A stretch of 64,000 nucleotides of DNA, taken from contig QPMI01000157.1 in NCBI GenBank assembly GCA_004431415.1, positions 186,001 through 250,000 of the forward strand, read 5' to 3'. Made by a program: the position numbers and the translations under genes. Origin of the DNA: Cyanophora paradoxa CCMP329 (taxonomy: Eukaryota > Plantae > Glaucophyta). Below are positions 41,284 through 63,728 of the stretch, one piece after another. Below the pieces are notes generated by a model that saw only the letters and a program-made list of their open reading frames with translations, was not told the origin of the DNA and ran no database searches. Position 1 is the stretch's first letter. Each line of letters opens with the position of its first letter.

Positions 41284-41561
41284 GGGCCCGCGTTTCCGCA
41301 GCCTCGAGCAAAAAAATGTAAATTGGGCATACTGCCCCACGAAATTATATATGGTAATAAAATCGAATAAACTTTAAACTTTTCGATATTCCACAAACGT
41401 TTCGACAAAACCAAATCAAAAACAAACCATTCACAGTAACCACACAAAACAAAACGTAAAATCTCAGTAAGCCTCAGTAACAACAATCGATGTTATATCA
41501 TAATCTCGGTTATTCCTCATTGATTGTTTCATATAAAAATAATCTGATAATCTGAATAAAA

Positions 41562-41924
41562 ATGGAAACCAAGCCACAACAACGCTTTTACATTTTCTCT
41601 CGATATGATGATCGCGAATCCGTGAAATCAAAAGGAGCAAAATGGGATTTTGAAAAGAAGCTATGGTTTGTTGAAGATGAAAACAGTGAGATCTTCAAAG
41701 AATTCCGAAAACTAACAGAAGACGAAATCAAATACATTAATGTTAAAATGTTTTGTCAAGTTGCTTTCAAAGACATCCAATTAGCGAAATCTTATGGTCT
41801 CAGATGGGACCCAATTCATAAGGGTTGGTATGTTAAAGGAATCCATTATAAAGAAATTTTCAAAGTGTTCAGACCTATCACGAAAATTGTTGAATCGAAA
41901 GATGGTTCATACCTCACAGCCTAA
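41562..41924 (+). CDS. Small protein with two DUF5710-like repeats
   Basis: YDDRESVKSKGAKWDFEKKLWFV and FKDIQLAKSYGLRWDPIHKGWYV match the K..GA.WD...K.W(Y/F)V pattern. Confidence 0.75.
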   Translation: METKPQQRFYIFSRYDDRESVKSKGAKWDFEKKLWFVEDENSEIFKEFRKLTEDEIKYINVKMFCQVAFKDIQLAKSYGLRWDPIHKGWYVKGIHYKEIFKVFRPITKIVESKDGSYLTA

Positions 41925-42979
41925 CGTCTAGTCAACCCGCTTCGTAAATTATACCTCTTCCTAACTACTTTGCTCCTATTGGGCTTGATACCCTCTTTTG
42001 CTACTAATCTATTTACCTTCGTTGTTTTTTTCACTCGCTCCACACGCTTCTGTGTGGGAATCTTAACAATTGCTGCCTTATCTACTTTTTGCAACTCGTT
42101 CAGTTTAAAGTTTCGTTTTACTTCCTTTGGACTCTCTCCCTCATTCTCTTCCAATAAACTAAATCGATTACCTACCTTGCCTGCTACTTTATACACTTGT
42201 TTGCTGTATCTTGCTCCTTCTTTATCGAAAGTCTTCTTTTCAGTTACAGCTCGAACATAATCTCCCTCCTTTACTGTTGGGCTACCTTCTTTAATACGTT
42301 TGTTATGCAATGCATCACGCAAATATATGAACGATTCTTTCTCGTTATTCCCATACACTGCATTGGGTGAATCATTCTTTAGGGAAGTGTGTGGACTGTT
42401 GTTGTAAGTTGCCAGAACCTGTTTGTAATAATCAGTCCATTTTGGGTTCCCACTCGAAACTATTGCTTTTCTCAAATATTGTTTAAAAGTTCTGGTGAAC
42501 CTATCGATAATACCAAGTTTATCACCTACTGTGATGTGGTCATTCTTAGCTACATCAGTGTAGAGTGTAACATTGTTTTCCTCACACCATTTCCTATAAA
42601 TCTCAGCAGAGAACTCATTGTCTCCTGAGATAGCACTAACCTTGCCTGCCTCAACTTTGAACCTGTTGAAAATATCGATTTTCGAATCCTTTGGCTTGAA
42701 AGGGTATACAAATGCTTTCCGACTCAATATATCGACAAATCCCAGCATCCTATCCACTCCATGTGTTGCTGTCTTGTAGCTTTTGAAATAAATCACATCA
42801 ACCTGAAAGGAATTGGGTGGAGCAATGATCCGCAAGAAAGACTTTTGCTTTTTGGGCTTCTTAAAGATCTGCTCAAGCTCTTGATTTTTAAAACGCTTTC
42901 TTAGTTCTTCCTCATCAAATGTGATACCTTCTTTAATCAATTTCTGTCGATACTTGGTATAACTCAGAACCTGGTCCAT
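41921..42979 (-). CDS. Retrovirus-like (rve) integrase of element A
   Basis: FQVDVIYF, VDILSRKAFVYP, SGDNEF, IIDRFTRTFK, YNNSPHTSL...SP, GDYVR...FDKEG..YS; intact 352 aa. Confidence 0.92.
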   Translation of the reverse strand: MDQVLSYTKYRQKLIKEGITFDEEELRKRFKNQELEQIFKKPKKQKSFLRIIAPPNSFQVDVIYFKSYKTATHGVDRMLGFVDILSRKAFVYPFKPKDSKIDIFNRFKVEAGKVSAISGDNEFSAEIYRKWCEENNVTLYTDVAKNDHITVGDKLGIIDRFTRTFKQYLRKAIVSSGNPKWTDYYKQVLATYNNSPHTSLKNDSPNAVYGNNEKESFIYLRDALHNKRIKEGSPTVKEGDYVRAVTEKKTFDKEGARYSKQVYKVAGKVGNRFSLLEENEGESPKEVKRNFKLNELQKVDKAAIVKIPTQKRVERVKKTTKVNRLVAKEGIKPNRSKVVRKRYNLRSGLTRR

Positions 42980-42984
42980 CCTTA

Positions 42985-45267
42985 TTATAGTGTTGTTTTT
43001 GTTTTATAGTGTCCAATCGCAAGAGTAGTATAGAGGTCCTCACAAAGATACCTCTTAGTATCGAGCGCATTGAATGCCTTTTCTTCATTTCCTGCGTTGT
43101 TACCTCGTGGTTCTTTGATCGGAAACCTCGAACTGTTACTTTCTCCCGCTCCTTCATTGGATACATGACAGTGTTGTAGAATTGTAGGAACTCTAACCTA
43201 TTCTGCACTACTGACCGCTGAACTCCCTTCAACTTCTTAACCTTACTATCAATAACATCAGCTTCCGTAGCATTCGACTTCACTCTTAACAAATCCTTCA
43301 ACTTGTCAGCAATCACCTGTTTTACATTTTCTTCTGATCCCAGAGCCTTAACATTCAACTCCTTCTCGTAGGAGTATGCTTTTGGTTTGTAACCAGCAAA
43401 CCTTGTAACGAGATAATCACCACAATCATCCTTGAACAAACCGGGAACCTTTTTATTTTAGGGTTGTAACAGATGTGGGATTTGCTGTAATCAGACTGAT
43501 CAAACCAATGAGAATCCTCAATCATGTCTTTGTAGATATCGTCAGTCTCAATCAGATAATACAGGGAATCTGTATCAGTCATGAGCAGCTTGGCTGATCC
43601 AGGTCCATACTTCACCATGATGTAATCGTAATGGAAACGATACATGATTAGTTTGGACAGATCCAAGATAGCCTGACCAACATAAATGGGTTTATCCAAC
43701 ATAATAGAACCCTTATAGAACTCTAAAGCAGTAAGATTCTCATTGATAATCTTCACTGTCTTCAACAATGGATTGCCGTTGTGTTTGAGCTGCACCCTGG
43801 GATCGTTGCAAAGCTTTATGTTACTTCGCTTGCGAACGTTCTCCATGGTCTTTCCGAAAACTGAGTTATTCATGAGTTTGTAGAAATCTTTCTCGAAATC
43901 ATTACGAGCTTGCGTCCGCAGTCCGGTATTGAAATCGATGTATGGTCTCAGCCACTCAGATTGATCATACATAATCCCACGATGAACCTTTGTTACCTTC
44001 AATCCTTTTGAGATGTAGTACTGCAAGTTTTTGATGTGTAGGATGTAATTGGTCTTGTTCATCAGATTGGGAACCAACTTACGAGTCTGGGGTAGTTTTT
44101 CATCACCAATCATTTCAAGCTGTGTTGGTGAAATCATTGACTTGGTGATTATTAGAGATTCGGGAGCAAGAGGTAAATCACTGTGAAGATCATGTAGGTG
44201 TTCTGGATATTCCAAGTCAACCTCCAAAGTTGCACCTCTATCACCTTCCACATCAAAGCCCATATAATCGAAATTCTCGATGTCATCAATCCACTCAAAT
44301 CCACCTCTGGGTAGCTTGAAACTCATCGCTTTCCCATACAGATTGTTGGCATCCCAAGTGGTGATATACTTTGTTGACTTTGATGGATCATAAGACTTCA
44401 TGTAGGGGTTATTAGCCTCTGCATAACGATTGGGAACCATGCAAACACCTCCACGAATTCCAAGTTCAAAGAATCTATACATTTCAGGGTCACTCAATTG
44501 CTCCAACTCCACACCTGTATATTTCAACATCGCGAACCATGACAGGTGAGGAGCTGAAATGAAATGGATAGGATCGATCTTATAATTACTGTAGCAAACA
44601 TTGCGGAATGTATTGAAAACGTCAGCAAGCAGAGCAACATCAGTAGAAAGATAGATATCGTGATAATCTCCGAGAGTTTTGCAGTTGAAAGCGTCCCATA
44701 CCCTCTGGCAATGCTTGTAGTCGGAGTCACTTAATTCAGTATCATTGAGTTTCGAGTAGAAAGCTTCTTTGGGAGGTAATTGGGTCTCACTGAGTTTCTC
44801 GAAGCTATCCAGGTAGTCGTAAGGGAAGTGTCCCTTTTGCATCAGTAGCTCTCGCTGTTCCTGTGAGTAATTTACAGAATCACACCACTCATTGGTGAAT
44901 TTGAAATTATTCTTACTGAGATTCTTTACCAGACCATCAAGGCTCGAAGCCATGAAATTCAAAGAGTCCATGAACTTGTATGGTCCCATATCGAATGCTA
45001 TGAACTTCTCAAAATTCTGGGCAATGCAACGAATTTCCTTACCAGGTTCATTGAAATTCAAAGCCTTCAGAATATAGTGTCCATCGTAACCTTTTAGATT
45101 GTGGAACACAACTGGGATCTTTGGATTGATCTTTCGTTTCAGATTGCAAGTATTGCAAGCTGCTCCAATGTAGTCTCCTGTAACGTGGTCGTGGTCTCTA
45201 ACCTTTTTAACTTGATATGTGTTACCATTATCATCGGTTACAGTAGCTCCAAACTCATCTCCACAGA
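42985..45267 (-). pseudogene. Protein-primed DNA polymerase B of element A, C-terminal part (interrupted by element B)
   Basis: KVRDHDHVTG...ACNTCNL, FHNLKGYDGH, FMDSLNFM, KGHFPYDY, GIRGG, WDANNLYG, YKLMNNSVFGKTMEN, MTDTDS, FKDD, DTKRY...TLAIGHY*. Two homopolymer frameshifts near 43455 and 43080. Confidence 0.93.
45263..45267 (+). repeat. Left target-site duplication ACAGA of element B
   Basis: ctcc-ACAGA-agcactgcg; an identical pentamer lies at 56938-56942. Confidence 0.88.
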
Positions 45268-45640
45268 AGCACTGCGCCGTGTCTCCAAAACAATACCCGC
45301 GAAAAAATCAAAAACAAATCAGAAAACAAACCATTCCCAGTAACCCAATCTTGAATATCAGTAAATCTCAGTAAGCCTCAGTAACAAAAATTTAATTAAT
45401 CGACGTTATATCATAATCTCGATTAATTATATCTTATCGCAGTTATATCTTTTTTATGCGCCGTGTCTCCAAAACAATTCCCAAGAAAAACAAACCATTC
45501 ACAGTAACCCAATTCCAAATCTCACTAAATCTCAGTAAGCCTCAGTAACAAAAATCGAATTTATCGAAGTTATATCTTAAATCTTATTTATCGAAGTTAT
45601 ATCATTATCTCGATTAATTATATTTAATCGAAGTTATATC
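45268..45640 (+). repeat. Left terminal inverted repeat of element B (373 bp)
   Basis: Reverse complement of 56560-56932 with one visible mismatch. Built from about 185-bp units starting (t)gcgccgtgtctcc and multiple atcgaagttatatc motifs. Confidence 0.95.
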
Positions 45641-45667
45641 CTTTTTATCCGCCGTGTCTCCCATCAA

Positions 45668-46213
45668 TTAGTCATCATCATCAATAAACTGATACTTATT
45701 TGCTATCATTCCATTTTTATGTGGTAAGCGATATGTATAATTTGTTTTACTTCCAGTTGCAACAGTGCCTTGAAATGTTTGCAAATCCGTTTTGTAGTAA
45801 ATATATGGGTTTTCAGATTCGTAATATCCCATATTCTCAATAATCTTTTTTCCAATAGAAACGACATGTTTTTCATCTCCACCACAAAAGAATATTATAA
45901 CACCAAATGCAGTATCTGAAGCTCGTGAATTGCGTTTACCTGTGGAGCATTTCATTGATGGTATACCCAATTTGCCTTCATCGAAACATTTCTTAAAATG
46001 CTCCCATTTTTTAGGTATCTCTTCTTTTGGATAGAAGACCATCCATTTTCCACTATCATGTAATCCAAAGTAGTCAGCATTTTCCAACACACATTCTGCC
46101 AATGTTTGACCAGGCTTTATTGTAACTGCTTCCACTTCATCATCAATTTCAGGGTATTGTGACTCATCATTATCATAATAAATCCAATACTCTGTCTTCG
46201 TTTCGAAACCCAT
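45668..46213 (-). CDS. DUF1917/Bles03-like (eIF4E-like fold) protein
   Basis: SGKWMVF...W...G.LG...KCST...VIIFF...IYYKTD..T..G pattern characteristic of DUF1917. Confidence 0.7.
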   Translation of the reverse strand: MGFETKTEYWIYYDNDESQYPEIDDEVEAVTIKPGQTLAECVLENADYFGLHDSGKWMVFYPKEEIPKKWEHFKKCFDEGKLGIPSMKCSTGKRNSRASDTAFGVIIFFCGGDEKHVVSIGKKIIENMGYYESENPYIYYKTDLQTFQGTVATGSKTNYTYRLPHKNGMIANKYQFIDDDD

Positions 46214-46254
46214 TTTTAAACTTACTGATATCTATTTCCTCCTGTCAATTTTTG

Positions 46255-47312
46255 TCAACGTTTCGTTAAACCACTTCTCAGATTGTATCTTCTCCTTATT
46301 ACATTACTCCGATTGGGTTTTATGCCTTCCTTTGCTACCAATCGATTCACTTTATTCGTCTTATTAACCTGCTGAATTCGTTTTTGTGATGGGATCTTAA
46401 TGATATCATCTTTATTCACCTTTTGCAATTCTTGCTTCTTAAACCTCCTCTTCACTTCTTTTGTTTCCTCACCATCATTATCTTCAAGGACTTTGAAACG
46501 ATTCCTATCAGCCTTTGCAACAGTGTAGACCTTCTGACTGAATTGCGCCCCTTCTTTTTCAAATAACCCCTTTGGTTGCAAAACTCGAACTGTGTCTCCT
46601 GGTTTCACTTGATTAGTATCAGCCTCCTTTACACGATTGTTGTGAACAGTATCCCTCATGTAAATAAATAACTGTTTATCTTCATTTGTATACACTGCAT
46701 TCGGTGAGTCATTTTTCAATGCCGAATGGGGACTGCTATTATACAAGTCAATTACATCACTAAGTAGATCGATCCATTTCGTGGTTCCTTTTGCTGTCAT
46801 CGTTTTCCTGAGATATTGTTTGAAAGTCCTAGTGAACCTATCAATTATCCCCAGTTTATCTCCTACTGTGATGTGGTCATCCTTTGCCACATCTGTGTAA
46901 AGCATTACACCATGTTCACTGCACCAATTTCGGTATACTGCCTGGGAAAACTCATTATCCCAGAGAGAGCATTAACTTTGCCTGCATCTTGCTTGAACCT
47001 ATTTAAAATGCTCGGGATCTCACTGCTGTTTTTAAAAGGATAAACAAATCCTTTGCGACTAAGTATGTCTACGAAACTGAGCATTTTGAAAATGCCATTG
47101 TTGGCAGTCTGAAACCCTCTGAAATATGTTATATCGATTTGAAACGATCTAGGCTTTGCTACTATGCGAAGAAACGATTTGGTTTCCTTGGTTTCTTGTA
47201 GATTTGCTGGAGTTCTGAGTTTTTGAATTTCTTTTTCAACTCTTTTTCATCAAACTCACTTTTCATTAATCAGTTTCTGCCTATACTTTTTGAATGATAA
47301 TACACTATCCAT
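46255..47312 (-). CDS. rve integrase of element B (5' half broken by single-base deletions)
   Basis: Starts MDSVLSFKKYRQKLI (ATG 47312, homologous to MDQVLSYTKYRQKLI). Contains FQIDITYF, VDILSRKGFVYP, GDNEF, IIDRFTRTFK and ends RRRYNLRSGLTKR. Confidence 0.88.
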
Positions 47313-50300
47313 TATTGGGCGGCACAGTTACACTTAATATGAGAGAGGAAACAATTTTTGGTAATGTGAGCCACAGCATTATTAATTCGATCTACCGAAA
47401 TATCTTCAAAGTCCATGGCATTGTAGCATCGCAGGCAATGCCATACTGCTTCCCATATCGCTGCTTGATCCAATCCCATGTGATGTAATCATGCTCATCG
47501 AATTGTCTGTTTGCTGCTCGGTCCTGATCCTTGTAAGTCGATATTTTCTCGTTATTCTCTCTCTTCCACACCTTCCAGTGAGCCATTTCGAAATTATCAT
47601 GGTAAATAACGACATCATCCAGCCTTGTGGTTCGTGTGAGAGCAACATAGAGCCACTTCTTTGACACAAATGGCGCCCCGTTTCGAACACAACTACCCTG
47701 TTCCCTTTGCAGCGAATCGTATCACCTTGAACAACATGGCAGGTGTTTGCATAAGCCAGGGCGAAATGTTTGACTGCATCCCTGCTGAGAACAATCTCAT
47801 CCTTCTTGTTGGCAATGTCAGCAATTATGAAACTGTCCTTTGAGAGCTTGACAATCTTGTAGACAAATCCATTATGAACTATTTTTCCACCCTTTGCAAT
47901 ACGAGTCTTTGCAACAACTTTGATGCCGCCAGCATAAATGGAAACATTATCCCCGTAGTTCATTTTGTGAAGGGCTAGGTTCACCTCTGCACCCTTGCGG
48001 TTTGTGTAAACAATGCCAATATCAGTCTTTTCCAATTCGTCCACAACCTTGAACCCATACTTCGCAAGGACCTCACTTACACTCAAACCTTTCTCGAACA
48101 AATCGATTCGAATCTGCTCAACCTTTCTGCGATCTTCCTCAGTCTCATGGCGCTTGTTCACTTGGAGTAACAATTCGTTGGGGAACAGGCGATGGAGGAT
48201 ATCGAGGTAATACTCATCTTGGTCAACACTCATATCTTGGATGGGTGGGTTTTGGTACGGGTCCCCTGTGGCGATGTATACCTTATCTGGGAACTGCTCA
48301 TTCATGATGTGGTCCAAGGCTGCCAGTTCCCCAATCTTAAACTGACAGATCTCATCAATAACAATGCAATCAAATTCTACCAAACCAGAGGCATTTCCTC
48401 CTACAATTTCATCCATGTTCGACTCATCGATTTTGAGATGAAGGGCATCATAGATTGTCTTCACATTTTTCAATCCTTGCTCTTTCATTTCTTTCACTCG
48501 CTTGTTGGTTGGAACAATATAGAGGGGATTTTGGAAACACTTTCCTCCATATTCAACTGTCATGTAAGTCTTTCCGACTCCCGGAACTGCTCCGAGAAGA
48601 ACCCATCGTTTTTGTGTAGCCAGCAAATCACAAATCGCGGTTGTGTCATACTCATCAACCACAGAGTGTTTGGTATAACTGTAGTTCTCGATTTTCACAA
48701 AGTCAGTCGCTCTCTCAAACTTTCCGTAACGAATTCGTTTTGCCTCGAGGTCTTTCTTCTCACCTGAAAACTTTTTAGAAAAATTGGGGCAGCATTTCAC
48801 ACTGAATTTTCCAATATTCTCAAAGGCATTGCGATCGAATGACATTGGGGCAATGGGTTCGTAAGCGATCCCATAAACACAATCGGTGTTCAAAGCAAGT
48901 GGTCGGATTTGCTGTTTAGCGAGTTCGACACACTTCTCATACATACACATCCTCATAATTGACAAGAGGGTAGTGTACAATGGCATGAAGCCATCAATGA
49001 GCTGCTTTTCTGCTACCTGATTGACATAGTAGATATGGGGTTCGGTCATCTCTTCCTCACACAGAACGAACTCTGTCTCCTCATAAGTGGCAAGAGTCTC
49101 ACCAAAGAGGTAAATCTTAACCTCCCCTCCATTCTGTTTCTGGAACTCGATCGCATCGTCTCTGTTGTGGAAAATGGTGGTTTTCACTCTGCTATTTCTT
49201 TGCTTTCCAGTTTGCCCAATCGCACTCACTAAGATCTGCTTCTTATCAACAGGATCGAGGTCGCTATCTAAGATTCGAGCAACTGTGTTGCCTGCAAGGT
49301 TGGGAATGAGTTTGTAAGGTCGCAGAACCGCTTTGATGGAGATGTCATCCTTGAAATCCTCGAAATGCTTTTTGAGAACCAAACCAGGAACGACATTGTA
49401 CTTGGAATCAATGATCATCCTCTTGTATCTGTTGTAGGTGTTTGCTTCGTACTCCTTTCCGTTCTTGTCTTTGGCTTTGAAAAAGTATTTGTCGTCCAGT
49501 TTCACGTAATAGAAGCTGTATTCCTCGATTTGCTCTGCATCTGTGATTGTCACACTCTTGAAGACATCGAACTTGCTGAGAACAGGAACGAATTTGATCA
49601 TCAAGGCTACAATGTAAGGGTATGCTTTGCACATATCGAACTCGTAAATATCTGTGTTATAGCGAATTTCATCAAAGGTCTCCTCATCCACATCAAAGAG
49701 ACCACGAAGGGCAGTCTGCACTCCATTCTTGAATGCATTTATGGTTTGCTCATTGTAAGTACTCTTGTTGGAAGTGTTGATTAGAGACCTATACATATCC
49801 AGATTTAGTTTCTCGAACTTATCTCTGTACTCAGCATTCTTGAAGCTAATCTCGAAAGCTGTTTCCACATCTGTATCGTTACCAGGTGGGGTCACGACAA
49901 CATCCTTATCGTCAATAGTGAAACGAATATGGGTTGCCTTTCCGATTTGGGAGAACCCAGGTTGCACCTGATAATTATGCACCACAATGAACTCTCTGAG
50001 AAGTTCATCCAGTGAACCACCATAGCAGATTCGAATGCTCGATTGGTTCTTTGGATTGTCAGACCTGACAATTCTCAGAATGTCGTCTGGATTTGTGGCA
50101 AACTCCTTGAACCTTCTTTGCTTTATAATCTTGTAACGAGAACTGAGTGGAACATTGGTATCTTTTGGCTTGGAGCCATTGAAGGACTGTGTGAGAGCCT
50201 TAATATTGTGATTTAACAAATACATGTGACCATTCTCAATCTTCACATATGCAACAGAAGGGGTCAAGTGTGTGTTTCTGGTCTTGGGCAGGAAAGTCAG

Positions 50301-51401
50301 TTCAGGGACAGGGGTCCTGTCGTCCTTTCCAATTGTAACCATGCCTAGGCGCAGTGGGTCAAGAACCTTCTCCGAAATGGACTTGAAAGAAATGCCCCAA
50401 TCATCTCCTTCAACAGGGTCTCGCCCATTCACCATCTTAAAGAGTCCGTTATAAGACCAATCGATGCGCTTGTATTTCCCTTTGGTCTTAGCCTTCTCAA
50501 ATGCTCCTCCAAACCATTTGATGAGGACATCGAAAACACACTTCCCAACCTTGAATGAGTCTCCTTTCAAGAACATTTCCTTGAATGTGGTGGCTTGGGG
50601 GTTCCCTTCGTTTTTAATGAAATTCGAAATAATCATTGGAGCGTTTGTATTGTCTCTGAGGACTTGTTCATTTCTTGGGATGTATTCTTCATTATCTGTC
50701 GTGATGACTCTTTCAATTGTCATAATATCGGGGTAGGTATCTTGCTCAATTAGTTTTAGGTAGCGGAAATCTTGATTGGTCGAGTTAAACTCAATAACTG
50801 CTGCAATAAATTCAGCAATGACAGTCCCCTCAACACATGGGAACGTATTGAAGGTGGATTGAACCAGACCGAGAGCATTCAGAAAAGCTGCCTTGGTACA
50901 CTGGATACCAAAGGGGCGATTGTTCCGAAGCCTCTTCGATTCAATGTAGGTCACACCATTCTCAGTGACCCTGTTTGCATTTGCAGGGGCTTGTTCTCCC
51001 TCTTGCAACTCACGGAAGAGTCTCACATTCAGGGTGACCATGTTTCCAGGTGAGTTTTCAACAAACTCACGGAGGTTAGCAATCATCTGCTGGAAAGGAG
51101 TCAAGCGCTTCCGCTCTCTCGCTTGCTCCGCTTTCTTGTTTTGCTTCTCAACATTCTTAGCGGCTCTCTCAGCCCTCTTCTCCTTCTTCTCCTGCTTGCG
51201 ATACAAACGAGGCTCTACGATACCTCTCAGTGTATCTCTGATATCAATCAACTTTGGAATTCTAATTGCTTTGAAAGTAAATTCTCTCAAGAAATAGATA
51301 TCCTGCTCTCGGGTCAATTTGTCTTCTACTTTTGCTTGCATGTAGTAACCGAGAATCTCATCCTGCAAATTCTTCGAAATTCGATTACTTGGTCGAGGCA
51401 T
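47312..51401 (-). CDS. Fusion of divergent PolB-like domain, superfamily 1 helicase and C-terminal HNH-type nuclease domain
   Basis: PolB-like motifs EFDMCKAYP, KQILVSAIG, NTDCV. SF1 motifs GAVPGVGKT, VIDEI, GDPYQNPP, NKRH, YANTCHVVQGDT, WLYVALTR. After two frameshifts comes CLRC...ISVDRINNAVAHITKNCFLSHIKCN*. The stop overlaps the integrase start (TAATG). Confidence 0.85.
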
Positions 51402-51641
51402 TTCTTTGTTCACTCTATTAATATATACCTACAAAAGTTTTCTTTAAATACTTTTATACTCGCGTCAAATTTTACCGGCAAAACCAAAAGTCTCCAACAA
51501 AATATATTTAGTCGAGGGCATTCATAAAAATAACAAAGGGTTGGCTCGATCATTGAACTCTAAAAATAACAGAAAGATTTTATTTGTGGTTCCAGCGCGG
51601 TTCCACGGGTTTCTCAGAGCAGATCGCGCTGAGAAAAACGA

Positions 51642-51899
51642 TTAACAGAGATATTTCGATTTGCGACCACGGTTAGAATACGGGACACCATAGAGATACT
51701 TCACAAAGCAGACTGCATTGGAAGCATAGAGACGCTGGGAACTCTCAACGATTCTCATGGCTCTGTAACACTCATCAGTATGGTATAAATCACGCATTTG
51801 CTTCGCGAATTTCGCATTATACTTTTTTAAATATTCCTGACCTTTTTCAGTTTTACGATAACGGTAAGTAGCACGCTTCTGAGCCTCACTGATTGGCAT
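51642..51899 (-). CDS. Small basic putative DNA-binding protein (element B)
   Basis: MPISEAQKRATYRYRKTEKG...RGRKSKY; homologue at 58919..59182. Confidence 0.7.
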   Translation of the reverse strand: MPISEAQKRATYRYRKTEKGQEYLKKYNAKFAKQMRDLYHTDECYRAMRIVESSQRLYASNAVCFVKYLYGVPYSNRGRKSKYLC

Positions 51900-52259
51900 T
51901 TTGTCCTTTTCTACTCTCTTAATATATGTTAAGAAATCTTTAAGTAGTTTTTCTGTCTGTATATAGCGATTAAACTCCTGTCAAATTTTGGTCCCAATCG
52001 CAGAGCATCCAATTCTGAAAGAAGATGCTGGAAAAATGATAAAGCCACCGAAACCAAATAGGCTCACTTGTCGGCTGCAAGTTTCTACCACTGAACCCGG
52101 TAGAACAGGTGATTAAAGTGATATCTGTGGATAATTCACTTCGCTCTACAACGCCTCCATAAAAATGAAGAAGTTTTGAGCCTACGGGATAAGATTGGTT
52201 ACGTAGCGCTAACAATGTTCAAGATTTTTTTAATTCGGAAATGATGCGTGAGCCGTCCC

Positions 52260-53007
52260 TTAACGGCGATAACCAGGTTTAATACCGAGCTTGGCAAACC
52301 CTGAGACCATTGGGGCAGCATTTGGAATCGAGTTGACTGGATCAGCCTGCGAAGTGGCAACCCGAAGGATCGATTTATTGAGGACCGGCAAATCCGTTTT
52401 GTTGGACTCTTGATAATCGATGGTCTTTGCAATCAATTCGGCTGGCGATTCTTTTGCAACATGAACAGGTTCAGGGATGACTTCATGGTTACTTCTGGTT
52501 TCTTCTCAACCTTTTCCTTTGTGATTGGCTGTTCCTTGATCCTGTTTTCGTTTTTGGTCTCTGCTGCGATACCATCAACAAGACTCTTAGCATACTGGTA
52601 TGTCACAGATTTCAGTCCACCAGTGGTTGAACGAATAAAGTAGCGGTTGCGATGGTCTTTCTCGGAATAGGTTGAGTAGAGTCGCTCACCACCATCAAGC
52701 AGTTTCAGCAGTGTTGATGATGAGGCAACCTTGTCCTTTGTCGATGATTTGAACTGTCCTTTCTTGATTCCTCGTTTGGCTCCAGGCATGCGGTTCAGTG
52801 GGACTTGATCAACCAGGGCATTATCATCATTTGAGTTTGAAGTAAGCGCAATTGTGTGAGCATTCATGGTCTGGTGAACATTTTATCGAGATCACCAGTT
52901 CCATATGCAGCGGTTCCTTTTGATTTCTTAAACTGTTTCCGTTCTGGTTCCGCTTGCTCAACTGGTTTGGCTAAGAAATTCTTTGGCTGGGTCTTTCGAG
53001 TTGCCAT
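52260..53007 (-). CDS. Lys-rich putative virion core protein (element B, frameshifted)
   Basis: Near-identical to the intact 59539..60300; starts MATRKTQPKNFLAKP. Confidence 0.65.
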
Positions 53008-53043
53008 TTGTAATATCGAGACAAATTTATTCTACAGTATTTC

Positions 53044-53940
53044 CTATGACCGTGAGAACGGCAAGTAGAGTCCTCCAACTCTTTAATGACATTCTTCAAT
53101 GCTTTCTTGGTCAGATCTTTATCATCTTCCGTAATGAGTTCAAGTGTCATCGACCAGTCAGTGGTAATATCCGTTTCAGCACCATTCCAGTATGTGAGAC
53201 GAACTTTTAGCGTTTCCACTTCCACTAAACCATTTTGCTCATGCAGGATCATGGAATTATTCGATGAATCGTATTTTAGCAGACTGCCTACCGTTTGATC
53301 AATCTCGATTTTTGCGAGGGCTTTATCATCACTGGTATTCTTGCTAACATAATTGCCTTTGAGTGGATCGACATGTAGAAGGATGTAAGAGTTAAACAGA
53401 AGATCAAGCGGTATAGCACTGTCAATGTAGTAATTATAAGTATTAGCTCCAACTGTTACAGGTGAATCGAGCAGGGCAGAAGCGTAACCATTTTCAGAAC
53501 TGTCAGGTCTGCGATCTGGGAAACCAAGGAAGTTCGCTAAAATCCGACTTCCAAAGGTGAGGGTAAATGTTGCATCGCACATGAACCTTAGAAACATGGT
53601 AACAGGATCATATGTAACGTAGAAATGGCGAGTATAGGTAGTTCCTGCTGCACCATACACCTGTGAAGCTAATTTGGCATTTAGAAGATTCACCAAACTA
53701 TCCGAAGTATATGTCCTTTTGAAATAGTGTTATTCTTAGTTTTAATTACATCCCCAGCATCATAGGTTCCTGTAATCAAACTTCCATTTTCGCTGAGATT
53801 GTAAATGTTATTGAACATCTCAAAGTTAGTCACTCTGCAGGCTCTCACATTTTGGATTGCATGGGAATTTTATAAGTGAAGTTCGTTGGGGTTCCATCAT
53901 CTCGGTCCCTGGAATCAATATTAAGGTAATGACGCGTCAT
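53044..53940 (-). CDS. Minor capsid (penton-like) protein of element B, frameshifted
   Basis: Reconstructed start MTRHYLNIDSRDR.DGTPTNF; C-terminal LAKI...LKVRLTYWNG...WSMTLEL typical of single-jelly-roll minor capsid proteins; divergent from the MCP. Confidence 0.75.
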
Positions 53941-53992
53941 TCTGTTTAATAAAGCATTTTAAAAATTTCTTTTGGTATTTTAAACATAAGAG
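53941..53992. promoter_or_regulatory. 52-bp AT-rich divergent promoter region between penton and MCP
   Basis: Identical to 61224-61275 in element A. Confidence 0.6.
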
Positions 53993-55219
53993 ATGGCACT
54001 CACTGGAACTACCCTTAAGGAACTCCTCGTTACTCCCGGTTCTGATCAAATTTATCTTTCCCCTGGTCTCCAAATCGGAACCAACCCCAAGTACAAACCA
54101 TTCCTCGAGCAAGTTCGTCCCCGAGGCAATACTTTTGGCTTTAAGAATACCGCTTACTTTGATCTACCTCGCAAGCAACTCCTTGCTGGTGTTTCGCTCT
54201 ATTTCAAGATTGCCACTGGTGGTGGTGTAGCCTGCACCCTCCCTAATGGTGGTTCTTCCTTTATTAATGAGGTCCGCTTTGTTCATGGTGGTTTCAAGTA
54301 TATCATCCCTGGTGACTGGATTACTGTTAACGCTCTGATTGATAATGATCATGCTACAATGAGCAGCATGTATGCTTCTCTCGGTTACTTCAAAGAACTT
54401 GATCGTGAAAGCACAGATGAGGCTATGGAATACATCGTTAAAATCCCGGCTGCTTTCTGGGATGATGCCTATTTTCCACTATGCACTCTGGCTGATATGC
54501 CAACAATCGAGGTTGATTTCCGTGATGCTGCAATTGTCAAAGTTCCTGCCGGTGGATCTGTTACCTTTTCAGATTGCTCCCTGATCTGTCAATTCGTAAA
54601 CATCGCTTCGGCTGAGGCTGAGACACTTTTGAAAATGGCAAATGAACAAGGTGGCATTCGCATTCCGATCACAGAGGTCATCCACAAGAAGACACGAGCG
54701 CTCAAAACCGCTGATGCTGGTGAATCGGTTGAGGTTACACTCGCTAATGTTTCCGGACTGGTTCATTCAATTCTCATGACTGTTCGAGAGGTGAACAAAC
54801 TAAATACCTACACTCACTCGGATTTCTGTGGTCATGTATCGGATGTTAAGATCGATCAGTTCCAGATCTTCCACAACAATCGCTCCCTCGATATCTCCAA
54901 CAAACCCATTTCTGGTTTCCTCTCGGCTATCAATCACATTCCTTCTCATTACAAGGGTGTTACTGTTGGCAATACTACTTATGGATTCGAGAATGGAAAT
55001 ATTTACGGAATCGTTCTTTCCAAATCTGGAAAAGATTCGCTTCGGAACAGTGTTATGGGTTACCAGGATTTCTTCAACAGCAGTTCCAGTTACATGGATC
55101 TCACTGTTTCGGGATGCACTGATGCTGCTCCTGTTCAGGTTGATATCTATGCCCTACGACACAATGTTATGGTCCTAAATGGCTACAACATCTCTACCCT
55201 GAAAGTCTCGAACTTCTAA
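53993..55219 (+). CDS. Double-jelly-roll major capsid protein (element B)
   Basis: 408 aa. N-terminal G..L..L...G.D.IYL...FG....F.LPR..LL and C-terminal VDIYALRHNVMVLNG resemble NCLDV-type/PLV MCPs. Flanked by penton and A32 ATPase. Confidence 0.88.
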   Translation: MALTGTTLKELLVTPGSDQIYLSPGLQIGTNPKYKPFLEQVRPRGNTFGFKNTAYFDLPRKQLLAGVSLYFKIATGGGVACTLPNGGSSFINEVRFVHGGFKYIIPGDWITVNALIDNDHATMSSMYASLGYFKELDRESTDEAMEYIVKIPAAFWDDAYFPLCTLADMPTIEVDFRDAAIVKVPAGGSVTFSDCSLICQFVNIASAEAETLLKMANEQGGIRIPITEVIHKKTRALKTADAGESVEVTLANVSGLVHSILMTVREVNKLNTYTHSDFCGHVSDVKIDQFQIFHNNRSLDISNKPISGFLSAINHIPSHYKGVTVGNTTYGFENGNIYGIVLSKSGKDSLRNSVMGYQDFFNSSSSYMDLTVSGCTDAAPVQVDIYALRHNVMVLNGYNISTLKVSNF

Positions 55220-55237
55220 GCGCGGTTTCGCCCGCGC
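55220..55237 (+). terminator. GC-rich hairpin immediately after MCP stop
   Basis: gcgcgg-tttcgc-ccgcgc in an AT-rich background; absent at the equivalent position in element A. Confidence 0.35.
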
Positions 55238-55365
55238 GCAACGACCGAAGGAAGTAGATTCTTTTCTTTCGTTAGAGTAGGAAGCGCAAAAGTAGTAGGG
55301 TCGGCATGACAAGCATGCCTTGCATGCGCTAAGGGGTTTATTTTGTTTTTTATCTTATTACTGTA

Positions 55366-56131
55366 ATGGATAACACAGGAATGGATATTGATTTGAACGA
55401 CATCCCAGAGTTTGAGCCTGCAAGAACAGTAAAGTTAAGCACGCGTTTTTTACTTTGCGGGCGCAGCAACTCGGGAAAAACAACCTACTGCAAATATCTA
55501 CTTTATGAACTGAGGGATAAGATCGATCAGATTGTAGTTTTTAGTTCTACTGCATTTACAGGTCAGTTCAGAGATATAACGCATCCTGATAATATCTATG
55601 AGGAATGGACGATAATGTAGTAGTGAAACTCATTAGCATGCAAAAGAAACGAATTGAAAATAATGAAAAACGCAACAATCTTGTTATTATACTTGATGAT
55701 ATGATCGGTTCCAATTTAGATATGCATAATTCGGCTGTGTTATCTAAACTGATCACGACAGCCGTCATTATTCGATTACAGTAATTATTAATACTCAACG
55801 TTTATGCTCTATTTCTACTACAATTCGTCGAAATGTTGAGTTCGTAGTATTTTTCAATATTCTTGGGAATGAGAAGGAGTTTAACTGCGCTTATGATGAG
55901 TATAATGGGGGTCTTGATAAAAAGACCTACAAAGAGTTACATAAAATGTGGGGTTACAATTACCAAACAGTCATAACTGGATTGCAAGGGTATGATATCA
56001 AAGTATACACAGACCGCGCAATATTAACAGATGATGATATGAAAGGCTTTAAGAAGTTTGTTAAGAGACGAGCGATAAAAAAGAGAGAATCAATACGAGT
56101 TAGTAATGAACCCACAACAATAACGGTTTAG
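55366..56131 (+). CDS. A32/FtsK-like genome packaging ATPase (element B, frameshifted)
   Basis: Walker A GRSNSGKT, Walker B IILDD and RHY motif; colinear with the intact 62582..63340. Confidence 0.88.
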
Positions 56132-56152
56132 ATAACAAGGAATGTTTGAAAC

Positions 56153-56446
56153 TCATTTCGTGTCCATTGCGTTTTTCAAAATCAATTTCCTACGTAATTT
56201 ACAGCGTGTATGGTTTACATCGTGTCTTTTTTCTAATATTTGTGAGTATTGGTGTGTGTTCATAGTTTCCATGGTAGATAAGAAGCCTTTCATAAGATTT
56301 GTTTTATATTTGCTTGGTAGTTTGTTAACATTTAAACCAGCACTATTAGCGGTTTTCTCAATCAATTTGCTTAATTGTTGCTCATCTGGAATTATGGGCA
56401 TATCTTGAAGAATCTCTTCAACATCTTCTGGTATTATGGTGGTCAT
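56153..56446 (-). CDS. 97-aa hypothetical protein unique to element B
   Basis: Clean ATG-start ORF between the ATPase and the right TIR, preceded by an AAAAATGA motif. Confidence 0.55.
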   Translation of the reverse strand: MTTIIPEDVEEILQDMPIIPDEQQLSKLIEKTANSAGLNVNKLPSKYKTNLMKGFLSTMETMNTHQYSQILEKRHDVNHTRCKLRRKLILKNAMDTK

Positions 56447-56559
56447 TTACAGATCGATATGGTTAATTTAAAAACAGTCGTCATTTTTTTGGATCGGTCA
56501 AAATTTGATTACGTTTAAAATTGATATAACTTCGATTGAATATAACTAATCGAGATATT

Positions 56560-56937
56560 GATATAACTTCGATTAAATATAATTAATCGAGATAATGATA
56601 TAACTTCGATAAATAAGATTTAAGATATAACTTCGATAAATTCGATTTTTGTTACTGAGGCTTACTGAGATTTAGTGAGATTTGGAATTGGGTTACTGTG
56701 AATGGTTTGTTTTTCTTGGGAATTGTTTTGGAGACACGGCGCATAAAAAAGATATAACTGCGATAAGATATAATTAATCGAGATTATGATATAACGTCGA
56801 TTAATTAAATTTTTGTTACTGAGGCTTACTGAGATTTACTGATATTCAAGATTGGGTTACTGGGAATGGTTTGTTTTCTGATTTGTTTTTGATTTTTTCG
56901 CGGGTATTTTTTTGGAGACACGGCGCAGTGCTGAGCT
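56560..56937 (-). repeat. Right terminal inverted repeat of element B (378 bp)
   Basis: Reverse complement of the left TIR plus 5 extra terminal bases (GAGCT). Confidence 0.95.
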
Positions 56938-58686
56938 ACAGATGTAGCAAGCAACAGAATCTCTGTAATCCTCTTTGTGCCATTGTTCCATAACCATTGG
57001 GGCAACATGTCTAAGCTTCTCAAGTAAATCGGATTCAATCGTTTTCAGTGTCTCCATAAAGTGCTGTGTAACCTCATCATCGTTCTCTGGGTTCTCCTTT
57101 CGATACAATACCTGTTTGATAATCTCATCGTTGTGGATAACCATGATTTTGTATCCACTGGGAATGTGTTTCTGGTAGACTGCAGTGTTTTCACCTCGTG
57201 TCTCATCCACCTTTTGCAATATACATTCAAAGTCAGCAACAACAAACATTGGATGCCATACAGTCTTGTCAACATGTCTCTTTGGGTCCCACTTGGTCTT
57301 AGATCCGCTTGGTGGCATTGTGTCAACTGTTGCATTTGGTCGATCGTAACACTTGTTGTGTTTAATGTGGGTCTCCAATACCGTTTCACTGGTGAACCCT
57401 CTCAAACAAGCTTTACAGAAATGGCGAGTTCCATGGTGCGAATTGGATATTAACCTTGACATGCTAGAAATGTAACCATAGTGGGTTTTTTCGTTGACAG
57501 TCCACAGAAGAATGTCAATTGTAAGATGTTGTTTAGATGGATCCTTACAGATATGGACTGGAACGATATGTGATCGATCGACCATATACACATTGATTGG
57601 TCGACCAATCATTTTTGATGCTCGTTCGTACTGACGAGGATCATTCTTGAATGGGAACTCAAACTTATTCCAATTGAACTCATTCTCATACTTCTTGTAT
57701 CGCTTTACATCGTATCGGTGTTTATGAGATAGCTCATGTTGATGTAGTCCAATAGTTACCGCCCATGCGAAACATTTATTATCTTTGTTCTGTGGATTAA
57801 TCACAGCTTTACGCTTTTTTATTCCTGGTGGGAGGTCAATATAGGAGCTACCTGCGAGTGGCTGATAAGTAAGAATCTGCAAGCGAACTGTTAAGATGTT
57901 TTCTAGCTTCCAACTATCAGGTGAAGTGAGAACCTCCTGCAATGCATCAATTGATTCATCAACAGTATCAACAATCTCTTGATCATTGACAAGAAGGTAG
58001 AATGGGGTGGTCCATTGCATGGTTCTTATTTCTCCAGTTGCCACTTTCACATATCTCGCCATGCTGTAGAGGTTATACTTAATACCTCGTCTGTTACGAA
58101 GAGCATCTCGAAAACGATTGTAGAAGGCATCCCAACCAACAACCTTATCGATAAACTCATGGGCAGAAGCGATTTTATTTTTGGTCTGGTTCCTCCAAGT
58201 TACTTCACTCACGAGATTATTCATAGCCTGCATTACCTCTGCCTCCTCTCGTTGTCTCTTCTCATCCTCTCTCTGCTGTTTTGCCTCCTTTGCTCTTTGC
58301 TCCTTAGACTTCTGCTTCTCCACATTCTTAGCGGTTCTTCCTGCTTTCTTCTGCTTCTTTTGCTGCTTCCTTTCAGCTCTCTTGTCTCGTTTTTCAGCGA
58401 TCCTCTCTGCTTTGGTCTTCTTATTTCCACCTTCAATAGCCTCAATGTTACCGAATCTCTCGATTTCATCCTGCTCATTCAGTCTGCCCTCACCCCTGGC
58501 AATAATACCATCAATTGTATCGCTTATGTCCTTCAGACCAGCAGATCGAAGTCTCTTAATGAAGGCAAAGTAACCCAATGCGTTAAATTGCTCTTCATTT
58601 ATGATTCCGGCACCAAGAAGGTAACCAAGCTTTGCTAGCATTCCTTGTCTCTTTCTCGCATTCTGAATACTTACTGCGCGAGGCAT
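56938..58686 (-). pseudogene. Protein-primed DNA polymerase B of element A, N-terminal part
   Basis: GSSYIDLP..IK.RKAVINPQNKDNKCFAWAV, INVY, HYGYI..MSRL, C..CL..F...L..H, exonuclease VADFECI. The frame runs into the TIR at ...CYIC. 56938-56942 is the right TSD. Confidence 0.93.
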
Positions 58687-58918
58687 TTTCACTTTTATAT
58701 ATACTCTATATTTTATTTCCTTAAGTCATTTTATACTCGCGTCAAATTTTACCGGCAAAACCAAAAGTCTCCAACAAAATAAATTCAGTCGAGGGCATTT
58801 ATAAAAATAACAAAGGGTTGGCTCGATCATCGAACTCTAAAAATAACAGAAAGATTTATAGTTTTGCTTCCAGCGCGGTTTCCGCGGGTTCTCAGAGCAA
58901 TCGCGCTGAGAAAAACGA

Positions 58919-59182
58919 TTAACAAGCATTAACGTACTTTGATGGACGTCCACGGTTGGTACGAGGAACGTCAAATAGATACTTTACATAGAGAATGGTG
59001 TTATTTACATATTGAGCCTTGCATGAAGTCATTATGTGAGCTTGTCTGAATTCTTCATCATTGTTATAGAGTTCGTTCCATTTTGCATTGCGTTTCTCAT
59101 TAATCCTAGCAAGCGCTAACATACCCTTTTCTGTTTTACGGTAGCGGTAAGTTGCTTTCTTTTGGGCTTCTGTGATCGTCAT
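58919..59182 (-). CDS. Small basic putative DNA-binding protein (element A)
   Basis: MTITEAQKKATYRYRKTEKG...RGRPSKY (AT-hook-like RGRP). Confidence 0.7.
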   Translation of the reverse strand: MTITEAQKKATYRYRKTEKGMLALARINEKRNAKWNELYNNDEEFRQAHIMTSCKAQYVNNTILYVKYLFDVPRTNRGRPSKYVNAC

Positions 59183-59538
59183 TCTTGTCCTTTCTGCTCT
59201 CTTAATATATGTTAAGAAATCTTTAAGTAGTTTTTATGTCGTGTATATATTCTTTGTGAGAACCCAATCAAATTTTGGTCCCAATCGCATTGCATCCAGT
59301 TCGAAAGAAGATGCTGGAAAAATGATAAAGCCACCGATACCCAAAAAGGTTCACTTGTCGGCTGCAAGTTTCTACCACTGAACCCGGTAGAACGGGTGAT
59401 TAAAGTGATTTACCTATGGATATTTCACTTCGCTCTACAACGCCTTCCATAAAAATGAAAAAGTGTTTGAGCCTACGGGATAAGATTTGTTACGTAGCGC
59501 TAACAATGTTCAAGATTTTTTAAATTCGGAAATGATCC

Positions 59539-60300
59539 TTAACGGCGATAACCAGGTCTAATACCAAGCTTGGCAAACCCTGAGACCATAGGGGCAGCAT
59601 TTGGAATCGAGTTGACTGGGTCAGCCTGCGAAGTGGCAACTCGAAGGATCGATTTATTGAGGACCGGCAAATCCGTTTTGTTGGAGTCTTGGTAATCGAT
59701 TGTCTTCGCAATCAATTCGGTTGGTGATTCTTTTACAACTTGAACAGGTTCAGGGATTACTTCATGGGTTACCTCTGGTTTCTTCTCCACCTTCTCCTTT
59801 GTGATTGGCTGTTCCTTGATCTTGTTTTCGTTTTTGGTCTCTGCTGCAATGCCATCAACAAGACTCTTCGCATACTGGTATGTCACAGATTTCAGTCCAC
59901 CAGTGGTTGACCGAATAAAGTAGCGGTTGCGATGGTCTTTCTCGGAATAGGTTGAGTAGAGTCGTTCACCACCATCAAGCAGTTTCAGCAGTGTCGATGA
60001 TGAGGCAACCTTGTCCTTTGTGGATGATTTGAACTGTCCTTTCTTGATTCCTCGTTTCGCTCCGGGCATGCGGTTCAGTGGGACTTGGTCAACCAGGGCA
60101 TTGTCATCATTGCTGTTTTTTGTAGTGGCTTGGGTGAATTGGTTTCGTTCTTTATGGACTTCTTTATCGAGGTCACCAGTTCCGTATGCAGCGATTCCCT
60201 TCGATTTCTTATACCAGTTCCTTCCATTCTCACCATTGCCAACATCCGCTTCAGTGGCTGGTTTGGCTAAGAAATTCTTCGGCTGAGTCTTGCGAGCCAT
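59539..60300 (-). CDS. Lys-rich putative virion core protein (element A)
   Basis: Intact 253-aa ORF downstream of the penton and conserved in both elements; function is inferred from position and composition only. Confidence 0.65.
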   Translation of the reverse strand: MARKTQPKNFLAKPATEADVGNGENGRNWYKKSKGIAAYGTGDLDKEVHKERNQFTQATTKNSNDDNALVDQVPLNRMPGAKRGIKKGQFKSSTKDKVASSSTLLKLLDGGERLYSTYSEKDHRNRYFIRSTTGGLKSVTYQYAKSLVDGIAAETKNENKIKEQPITKEKVEKKPEVTHEVIPEPVQVVKESPTELIAKTIDYQDSNKTDLPVLNKSILRVATSQADPVNSIPNAAPMVSGFAKLGIRPGYRR

Positions 60301-60336
60301 TTGTAATATTGAAACAAAATTATTCTACAGTATTTC

Positions 60337-61223
60337 CTATGACCGTGAGAATGGCAGGTAGAGTCCCTCCAACTCTTTAATGACATTCTTCAATGCTTTC
60401 TTTGTCAGATCTTTATCATCTTCAGTAATGAGTTCAAGAGTCATCGACCAGTCGGTAGTAATGTCTGCTGTGGCTCCATTCCAGTAAGAAAGTCTCACAT
60501 CTAGAGTCTCAACCTCAACCAAGCCATTCTGCTCGTGAACGATCATGGAATTATTCGATGAATCATATTTTAATAGACTGCCAACCGTTTGGTCAATCTC
60601 AATTTTTGCGATAGCATTGTTATCTCGTTTGTTATTGCTCACATATCTTCCTTTCAGTGGATCAACATGAAGAAGCAAATAGGAATTAAATAGTAGATCT
60701 AATGGCATTTCACTATCAATGTAGTGAGCATAAGTAAAGGCTCCAACTGTGACATTAGATGATAGAGGACTCGATTGGTACAGTGTGTTAGCATTTTCAA
60801 AACCACAGAAATTGGCTAAGAGTTGAGTGTTCATAGTGATTGAGAATGGAACCTCACACATGAACCTTAGAAGCAATGTTGTGGGATCATAGGTTACATA
60901 GAAATGGCGAGTGTAAGTTCCGCCACCCGCTTGATTATAGGGCTGGGATCCAATGCGAGCGATCAGATAATTCACCAGTGAATCCGGTGTATATGCACCT
61001 CGGAGGACTTCGTTGTTTCTATTCTTTGGGTTCCCAGCATTATCGAGTGTTTGTGTGGTGAGGGTTCCTACTTCAGAGAGGTTGTAAAGATTGTGAAACA
61101 TCTCAAAGTTCGTTACTCGACAGGCTCTGACCTTTTGGATTGCATAAGGGAGTCTGTATGTGAAATTAGTTGGGGTTCCATCCGATCGGTCCTGGAATCA
61201 ATATTGAGATAGTAACGCGTCAT
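60337..61223 (-). CDS. Minor capsid (penton-like) protein of element A
   Basis: One missing G restores MTRYYLNIDSRDRSDGTPTNFTYRLPYAIQKVRACRVTNFEMFHNLYN in frame with ORF 60337..61101. Confidence 0.8.
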
Positions 61224-61275
61224 TCTGTTTAATAAAGCATTTTAAAAATTTCTTTTGGTATTTTAAACATAAGAG

Positions 61276-62502: not shown

Positions 62503-62581
62503 AGTTCTTTTCTTTCGTTAGAGTAGGAAGCGCAAAATTAGTAGGTAAGGGGTTTATTTTGTTTTTTATCTTATTACTGTA

Positions 62582-63340
62582 ATGGATAACACAGTAAACT
62601 TAGATGATATTCCGGAGTTCGATCCGAGTAAGACAGTTCGAATCCCAACGAGAATTTTAAATGTTGGTCGCTCCAATACAGGTAAGACAATGTTTACAAA
62701 ATACTTACTTTACGAGCTTCGTGACAAGATAGATCAGATTGTAATATTTAGTTCCACAGCTTTTACTGGGCAATTCAATGACATCACCCATCCAGATAAC
62801 ATCTATGAGGAATGGGATGATAACATTGTTTTGAGATTGATCAGTATGCAAAAGAAACGAATCGAGAACAATGAGAAACGAAATAACTTAGTAATCATAC
62901 TCGATGACATGATAGGTTCCAATTTGGATATGCATAATTCGGCTGTGTTATCTAAATTGGTCACGAGCGGCCGCCATTATTCAATTTCTGTGATATTTAA
63001 TGTTCAGCGTTTATGCTCAATTTCTACTACCATTCGTCGTAATGTGGAGTTCGTTGTATTTTTCAATATACTTGGGAATGAAAAGGAATTCAATTGCGCC
63101 TTTGATGAGTACAATGGTGGAATGGATAAGAAGACCTACAAGGAATTGCATAGACTATGGGGTTATAATTACCAAACTGTCATAGCTAGCCTGCAAGGTT
63201 ATGATATCAAGACCTATACTGATAGAGCAGTACTAACTGATGATGATATAAAGGGCTTTAAGAAGTTTGTGAAGAGAAAAGCAATTAAAAGGGGTCAGAT
63301 GGCTCGGATCCAACGAGAAATGACCACAATCAGTGTGTGA
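62582..63340 (+). CDS. A32/FtsK-like genome packaging ATPase (element A)
   Basis: GRSNTGKT, VIILDD, TSGRHYSISVIFNVQ, IRRN; intact 252 aa. Confidence 0.93.
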   Translation: MDNTVNLDDIPEFDPSKTVRIPTRILNVGRSNTGKTMFTKYLLYELRDKIDQIVIFSSTAFTGQFNDITHPDNIYEEWDDNIVLRLISMQKKRIENNEKRNNLVIILDDMIGSNLDMHNSAVLSKLVTSGRHYSISVIFNVQRLCSISTTIRRNVEFVVFFNILGNEKEFNCAFDEYNGGMDKKTYKELHRLWGYNYQTVIASLQGYDIKTYTDRAVLTDDDIKGFKKFVKRKAIKRGQMARIQREMTTISV

Positions 63341-63661: not shown

Positions 63662-63728
63662 AAAAATCACTACTCTGTGGCATGGACCAATAGAAATTGA
63701 GCAAAGTAAACATTTAATTTATAACTTT

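Follow-up and report, generated by a model that had tools for sequence, protein, structure and literature searches.

The DNA analysed here, called the window in the following, is a stretch of 64,000 nucleotides of the genome of the glaucophyte Cyanophora paradoxa CCMP329 (GCA_004431415.1, contig QPMI01000157.1, positions 186,001 to 250,000 of the forward strand). It contains two sibling endogenous viral elements, which are called A and B. The nesting of B, an element of 11,670 nt (45268-56937), in the pPolB DNA polymerase gene of A is supported in the window as assembled. It is likely that this was an ordinary chance insertion and not a targeted attack of one virus on the other.

The evidence for the nesting came from the ends of B and from the comparison with an empty site. 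B is bounded by two terminal inverted repeats (TIRs) of 373 nt each, which differ only at position 45291, and it has the same orientation as A. At its right end five extra bases are present between the symmetric TIR and the adjacent target-site duplication (TSD), the five bases of which are identical on both sides of B. Near-perfect TIRs, a duplication of ACAGA and a common orientation had already been proposed in a preliminary description of the sequence, and all three were confirmed. Public runs were also used: 24 runs contain 67-80% of the sequence words of 41000-50900, and 4 of these 24 were examined by contigs. The runs may represent one strain lineage, and one of them may be the source of the window itself. 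In all four runs, contigs connected 45262 directly to 56938, omitting 11,675 nt and retaining a single copy of the TSD; at this joint 5 letters could be assigned to either side, again in 4/4 runs. The chance of a 5-mer match with 11 offsets permitted is about 1.3%, but the assignment of B and its TSD is fixed independently of this value, because the empty-site joint omits exactly 11,675 nt in every run. A different assignment, with B ending at 56932 and without a TSD, was rejected for the same reason. The features that define the insertion are the following (coordinates in the window):

42985-45262, minus strand: 3′ half of the pPolB gene of A, which has two more frameshifts close to the end (DNA_pol_B_2, E=3e-18)
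45263-45267: left copy of the 5-bp TSD (letters, and empty-site joint in 4/4 runs)
45268-45640: left TIR of B, 373 nt, with internal sub-repeats (repeat comparison)
56560-56937: right TIR of B (56560-56932) and 5 extra terminal bases (56933-56937) (repeat comparison)
56938-56942: right copy of the 5-bp TSD (letters)
56938-58686, minus strand: 5′ half of the pPolB gene of A, 583 aa, ending at the CxxC of an endonuclease-VII-like insert (matches 119 of 120 pPolB homologues, best 27-32%)

The two ends of B are not equal. Read inwards, two imperfect 5-mer repeats are present at the right end, whereas only the inner one is present at the left end. Processing of the ends by the integrase would fit this, and so would slide-back initiation from the inner repeat. 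Both ends start with 5′-AG, and such ends are typical of Polintons. In addition, loose contig ends were present at 45333 and 56703, which is the same TIR position, in all four runs; they point to another subfamily, the outer TIR segment of which is different.

The upstream half of the interrupted gene comprises 1749 nt or 583 codons, and from 45262 the downstream half is open for 635 codons in the same frame, verifying the earlier claim that B splits pPolB in frame. The 3′ half was 45-56% identical to Maverick/Polinton-type pPolBs (best 120 of 6,918 matches). In 116 of these 120 homologues the two halves abut, i.e., the upstream alignment reached at least residue 575 and the downstream alignment started within 30 residues. 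A fused pPolB of about 1,340 aa had been predicted, and this agrees with in-frame halves that abut in homologues, but the span of about 1,340 codons includes two further frameshifts in the 3′ end. The latter may be assembly errors, because 1-2 gaps near this end distinguish the contigs from the window. The break is located directly after the CxxC of the endonuclease-VII-like domain. The remaining half domain matched PF02945 with an E-value of 7.7e-4 and 19.8 bits, which is under the cut-off of 23.6. Polinton-type homologues of the A pPolB often carry PF02945, and the motif CxxC...DH[CD]H, which is split by B, was found in 114 of the 120 homologues. The match and the motif bear out that the insertion is in the Zn/endonuclease-VII-like insert, as had been stated before.

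The depth of the empty-site contig, divided by that of the contig with the 3′ end of the A pPolB gene, was 0.96, 0.88, 0.82 and 0.87 in the four runs. The depth of the B family was 1.9- to 2.1-fold that of A; contig depth is no copy number and was used here only to judge which form of A is likely the majority. As the empty-site contig accounted for 0.82-0.96 of the A depth, most A copies seem to be intact, and the uninterrupted A is likely to be the majority form. A depth of B about twice that of A, together with 82-96% of the A depth in the empty form, argues against a location of most B copies at this site.

The further features of the two elements are as follows:

Element B
45668-46213, minus strand: Bles03-like gene, 181 aa (PF08939, E=1e-6), adjoining the left TIR
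46255-47246, minus strand: rve-like integrase, in two frames in the assembly (rve_3, E=0.0048, below cut-off)
47300-51413, minus strand: Tlr1-like replicase with putative vOTU, pPolB palm motifs, SF1 helicase and HNH-like tail (motifs by eye, Pfam, Atlas)
51394-56081: central and morphogenesis block, direct repeat of A 58679-63290 (81.8% over 4,755 columns)
52971-53729: putative minor capsid counterpart of A 60337-61101 (by position only)
53993-55219, plus strand: major capsid protein, 408 aa (98% identical to the A capsid protein)
55333-56131, plus strand: A32-like packaging ATPase, frameshifted in the assembly (Pox_A32, E=5.4e-4, 5′ piece)
Element A
41300-41560: left terminal region, TIR sub-motifs in common with B (76-84% to the B TIR; exact terminus not fixed)
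41562-41924, plus strand: gene with DUF5710 repeats (E=4e-14)
41921-42979, minus strand: rve-like integrase, 352 aa (weak rve match, E=0.2; 65% nt identity to the B integrase; weak blastp match to an rve-bearing protein)
60337-61101, minus strand: putative minor capsid protein, labelled by position only (no Pfam match)
61276-62502, plus strand: major capsid protein (model pTM 0.75; Foldseek, PBCV-1 capsid, E=2.6e-16)
62582-63340, plus strand: A32 packaging ATPase, 252 aa (Pox_A32, E=1e-15)

B is likely a Tlr1-type Polinton-like virus (PLV), with a superfamily 1 (SF1) helicase protein of 1,000-1,400 aa, an rve-like integrase (weak match), TIRs and a TSD. Its replicase gene has an open frame of 1,335 aa, and the helicase matched AAA_19 (E=7.7e-9), AAA_30 and Viral_helicase1. 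The Atlas score to viral helicase clusters of 1,000-1,300 aa was 0.98. Further candidate domains were recognized by eye. Strings resembling the palm motifs A, B and C, without a Pfam match, are present at residues 593, 725 and 841, with a motif C that lacks the first Asp in this reading, and a candidate vOTU Cys/His pair lies near residues 290/393. The HNH-like Cys/His tail (47300-47560) extends across shifted frames and includes a 34-aa piece without a Pfam match. For residues 280-1335 no sequence match was obtained among 7,996 candidates scored, and the comparison with PDB sequences yielded only matches at chance level. A single-sequence structure model had a pLDDT of 30.7; it did not confirm the palm fold and was not used. 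B thus likely carries a Tlr1-like replicase of its own, a putative pPolB-palm/SF1-helicase protein. Because of this replicase, B likely neither needs nor profits from the pPolB of A at the insertion site.

The two pieces of the B integrase were 52% and 65% identical to the A integrase, and at their overlap the contigs of the dominant variant differed by an indel in 4/4 runs. In spite of the weak rve_3 match the integrase call is supported, because the protein is similar to the A integrase and to an rve-bearing protein. B had been described as a complete virus. This holds for its gene set, which is full, but in the assembly frameshifts are present in the integrase gene, the replicase 3′ end, two central genes and the ATPase gene.

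Within its family, the B copy of the window represents a minor variant. Of 1,681 positions compared, 37 differed from the dominant B contig; contigs omitting 45671-46259, i.e., the Bles03-like gene, were found in all four runs, and a 501-nt exact contig of this gene in run X21 had a depth of only 31.9, about 0.09 of the A depth. The Bles03-like gene therefore appears to be specific to the B variant of the window. It occupies the slot in which A has its DUF5710 gene, and joints in X21 mix left ends of A and B; the gene looks like variable cargo.

A and B have a block of 4.7 kb in common, the beginning of which coincides with the start of the replicase gene in either element. Its overall identity of 81.8% varies from 62 to 97% per 200-nt window. 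The capsid proteins of 408 aa are 98% identical, with 10 amino acid differences and 92.9% identity at the nucleotide level. The model of the A capsid protein is a double jelly roll (DJR), and Foldseek aligned it to the PBCV-1 capsid protein with a TM-score of 0.64. A DJR capsid protein and an A32 ATPase are present in both elements, which agrees with an assignment of both to the Polinton-like supergroup (Polisuviricotina). To judge from its pPolB and its rve-like integrase, the match of which is weak, A is probably a Polinton-type virus. The preliminary description had stated that the insertion disables precisely the gene that B does not share. This did not hold, as the integrases have only 52-65% identity and differences are also present among the left-end genes.

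How B arrived at its site is best discussed together with the expectation by chance. A null model in which 366 elements of 11.7-20 kb are integrated one after another at random expects 8.0-13.6 nestings, and 1.9-3.4 are expected for 183 elements. That pPolB was hit is unremarkable, because this gene takes up 38% of A as far as the element lies within the window (4,027 of about 10,500 nt). We consider it probable that a Tlr1-type B was inserted into the pPolB gene of one copy of its sibling A, by chance or by drift into tolerated viral DNA. A linear B genome would have been joined to one of the chromosomal copies of A by a DDE (rve) integrase, with a stagger of 5 bp. Either end processing or slide-back at the inner repeat would account for the absence of the outer 5-mer repeat from the left end. 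The A copy hit would lose its pPolB, intact siblings would supply pPolB in trans, and the insertion could have persisted as the host would lose nothing. The host genome probably contains hundreds of such elements.

Several points weigh against pure chance. When the calculation is restricted to the families of A and B, with rough estimates from depth of about 10 copies for A and 20 for B, only 0.02-0.03 insertions of B in A and 0.008 of B in pPolB are expected. Nesting is thus unlikely a priori for the pair A/B, and it is unremarkable only because this case was singled out in retrospect, among many pairs that were possible. Moreover, in Halocafeteria seosinensis 18% of the elements are nested while they make up 6.2% of the genome, as given in the accessible part of that report (bioRxiv 10.64898/2026.07.28.741278). 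As this nesting rate exceeds pure chance, some insertion bias towards viral DNA is plausible. A safe-haven preference for AT-rich DNA had been named as an alternative in the preliminary description; it fits better than targeting, but no signal of a local AT preference was detected at the target, the flanks of which have 40% GC compared with a mean of 41% for A.

The same description had favored targeted competition or virus-on-virus parasitism. The integrase of B, perhaps aided by the HNH-like domain, would seek A genomes or the pPolB insert and disable the rival replicase. The site is indeed in the gene by which the siblings differ most, B has an HNH-like tail, and the low family-restricted expectation of 0.008-0.03 would also agree with it. 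Nevertheless, it is a single event, and most A copies seem to be uninterrupted in spite of a B depth of 1.9-2.1x that of A. The site lies in a gene that already makes up 38% of A, 8-14 random nestings are expected, and B has its own replicase. Disabling one silent copy of about ten would bring little gain. Homing would require homologous flanks, and a 5-bp TSD indicates integration by a DDE enzyme instead. Targeting of A by B is therefore unsupported, and we regard it as improbable. A precedent exists in that 91% of type 1 Ngaro retrotransposons are located in endogenous mavirus-like elements (EMALEs); for the EMALEs themselves no sequence-specific integration was found and TSDs are mostly 3-5 bp, according to the sections available (PMC8547959). 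Retrotransposons nested in PLVs have been described in passages of two further reports (PMC12220804, PMC12747079).

Alternatively, A and B could have been reactivated together, B could have been inserted into an A genome outside the chromosome, and integration of this composite via the ends of A could have followed. The common capsid and the TIR sub-motifs make co-reactivation plausible, and replicating genomes would be abundant targets. In addition, contig joints suggest A/B mosaics, e.g., the joint of 51393 to 58679, which connects the B replicase start to the central block of A. It was found in 3/4 runs with depths of 388, 167 and 644; its short side has 30 letters, 10 letters are ambiguous, and joints at a likeness of 90 may be due to repeats. 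The joint may point to an established subfamily in which the B replicase is combined with the central block of A, and which need not originate from the locus in the window. A second joint, 60900 to 53814, was an edge effect of the reference and not a hybrid. The composite would exceed 22 kb, about twice the length of B, and would probably be too big for the common capsid; within the window, no paired ends and no TSD of A were located. Taken together, an extrachromosomal insertion seems rather unlikely. The nest might also represent an intermediate of a replicase take-over, in which Tlr1-type B viruses prefer pPolB-type siblings, recombination between the capsid blocks removes the start of the A polymerase, and the B integrase and replicase are left on the capsid genes of A, with the joint 51393/58679 as the product. 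We give this proposal little credence.

Still less probable is an artefact, i.e., two repeat families that were joined erroneously by a long-read assembler or polisher. The many frameshifts are signs of an error-prone assembly, as described in the accessible text on multi-copy viral elements (PMC10120064), and no contig spanning an A|B junction was present among the 32 pieces listed, with 2,865 more outside this list; contigs drop rare forms, and this was not counted as evidence. However, both breakpoints are at the termini of B and within non-homologous pPolB sequence, whereas misjoins would be expected in the common block or the TIR motifs. Furthermore, exactly 5 bp are duplicated that are single in the empty form, and the Bles03-like gene of the window's B variant does exist as an exact low-depth contig in X21, at about 0.09 of A.

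The insertion of one virus into another has parallels in known systems. Virus-in-virus nesting, Tlr1-like replicases and the A/B capsid family are already in print. In Halocafeteria seosinensis 14 of 77 elements (5 PLVs and 9 virophages) are located within other viral elements, and viral sequences were called hotspots (bioRxiv 10.64898/2026.07.28.741278, available part). As in the window, complete viruses bounded by TIRs and TSDs reside inside endogenous viruses, the elements contrast in GC content and long interspersed nuclear elements (LINEs) are nearby. In contrast, A and B are siblings whose capsid proteins are 98% identical, and B was inserted into a pPolB gene, while the available text of that preprint names no target genes. 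Tlr1-like helicases were described in PMC5499653 and predicted to be active polymerases in PMC11161782, as far as the accessible sections of both go. Compared with the Tlr1 features given there, B shares the capsid protein, ATPase, rve integrase, TIRs and lack of a detected protease, and also a 1,000-1,400-aa protein with an SF1 helicase at the C-terminus, putative palm motifs and a putative endonuclease tail (palm and tail by eye). It differs in that its tail is HNH-like as in PLVs, in contrast to GIY-YIG in Tlr1, and B has a length of 11.7 kb. A resembles Mavericks/Polintons in its pPolB (45-56% identical, with endonuclease VII insert), rve-like integrase, ATPase and DJR capsid protein, but no cysteine protease was detected, and for the capsid protein just 5 distant relatives were found among 1.84 billion representatives.

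For C. paradoxa, an adintovirus-like PolB and integrase have been noted (PMC8502044, in part). Its endogenous viral elements were catalogued as capsid counts, and the accessible portions of the reports do not describe the nested pair or pPolB/Tlr1 siblings (PMC10120064, PMC8502044). For Polisuviricotina, replicase mosaicism was proposed, with deletion across adjacent elements as the swap mechanism (bioRxiv 10.64898/2026.10.13.758929, available part). Near-identical morphogenesis modules paired with different replicases are common to that study and the window; the tandem and second-replicase cases there involve PolA/AEP, whereas here pPolB and a Tlr1-like replicase are found, nested with a TSD. 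No description of a PLV inside the pPolB of a sibling, or of an A/B-type sibling pair, was found in the literature covered, from which subscription journals were mostly absent; preprint supplements may list cases.

Resolved to the exact base, the nested pair cleanly illustrates a phenomenon that is already known, i.e., endogenous viruses landing in each other. It is also a test case: one host harbors sibling viruses with 98% identical capsids and two replicases, which diverge at the replicase start codon. Because B and A have the same orientation, the capsid blocks are direct repeats about 7.3 kb apart, and they include exact stretches of up to 101 nt. Recombination between them could yield a hybrid with the integrase and replicase of B and the tail of A, so that the nest provides a tangible structure on which the swapping of replicases proposed in Polisuviricotina could act. 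Targeting, if true, would represent a virus-on-virus gene knockout in a eukaryote.

The capsid family was compared with larger collections. No match to the A capsid protein was obtained among 4,686 candidates, and among 1.84 billion representatives there were 5 distant relatives with 24-28% identity, the only named one of which is from Cyanophora paradoxa. This scarcity argues against a Maverick-Polinton-clade capsid for A, as far as can be judged from sequence comparison. For the capsid locus, 0 of 74 pattern matches were confirmed in metagenome contigs and 0 of 4 in viral contigs, and the exact look-up of window proteins in protein collections retrieved 0 of 10. The idea of an unknown capsid lineage was rejected, as a near-identical protein is included in Table S2 of PMC10120064; by eye, the listed C. 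paradoxa capsid protein differs from that of A at about 7 of about 300 residues. The empty search of protein collections does not show novelty, because the capsid family was listed in this 2023 supplement. Table S4 of the same report, which was likewise available in part, gives 366 capsid hits in two clusters for C. paradoxa, with 99.94 Mb and an estimated 7.3% of the genome.

A candidate for the left terminus of A at about 41203-41245 was rejected, as 2 of 130 host windows scored equally high, and no inverted partner of the left end was present within the 64-kb window. An Ulp1-like maturation protease was not found among the 23 window open reading frames (ORFs) scanned; the right end of A is outside the view. 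The region beyond the A ATPase gene (63340-64000) contained no copy of the left-end motifs of A. It has 12-bp tandem arrays (63583-63661 and 63726-63810) and a stretch rich in AT dinucleotides, and it could be a distinct right arm of A or a third element. Positions 1-41,200 of the window have a GC content of 67%, with values up to 83%, and from about 41,300 onwards it is about 40%. A transposon-rich neighborhood was not apparent, with matches for 2 of 25 ORFs at about 21.5-25.9 kb, which belong to one LINE, and for 0 of 48 ORFs at 26-41 kb. This LINE-like retrotransposon (21472-25917, minus strand) encodes a reverse transcriptase (RVT_1, E=2e-19) and an APE-type endonuclease (E=9e-7).

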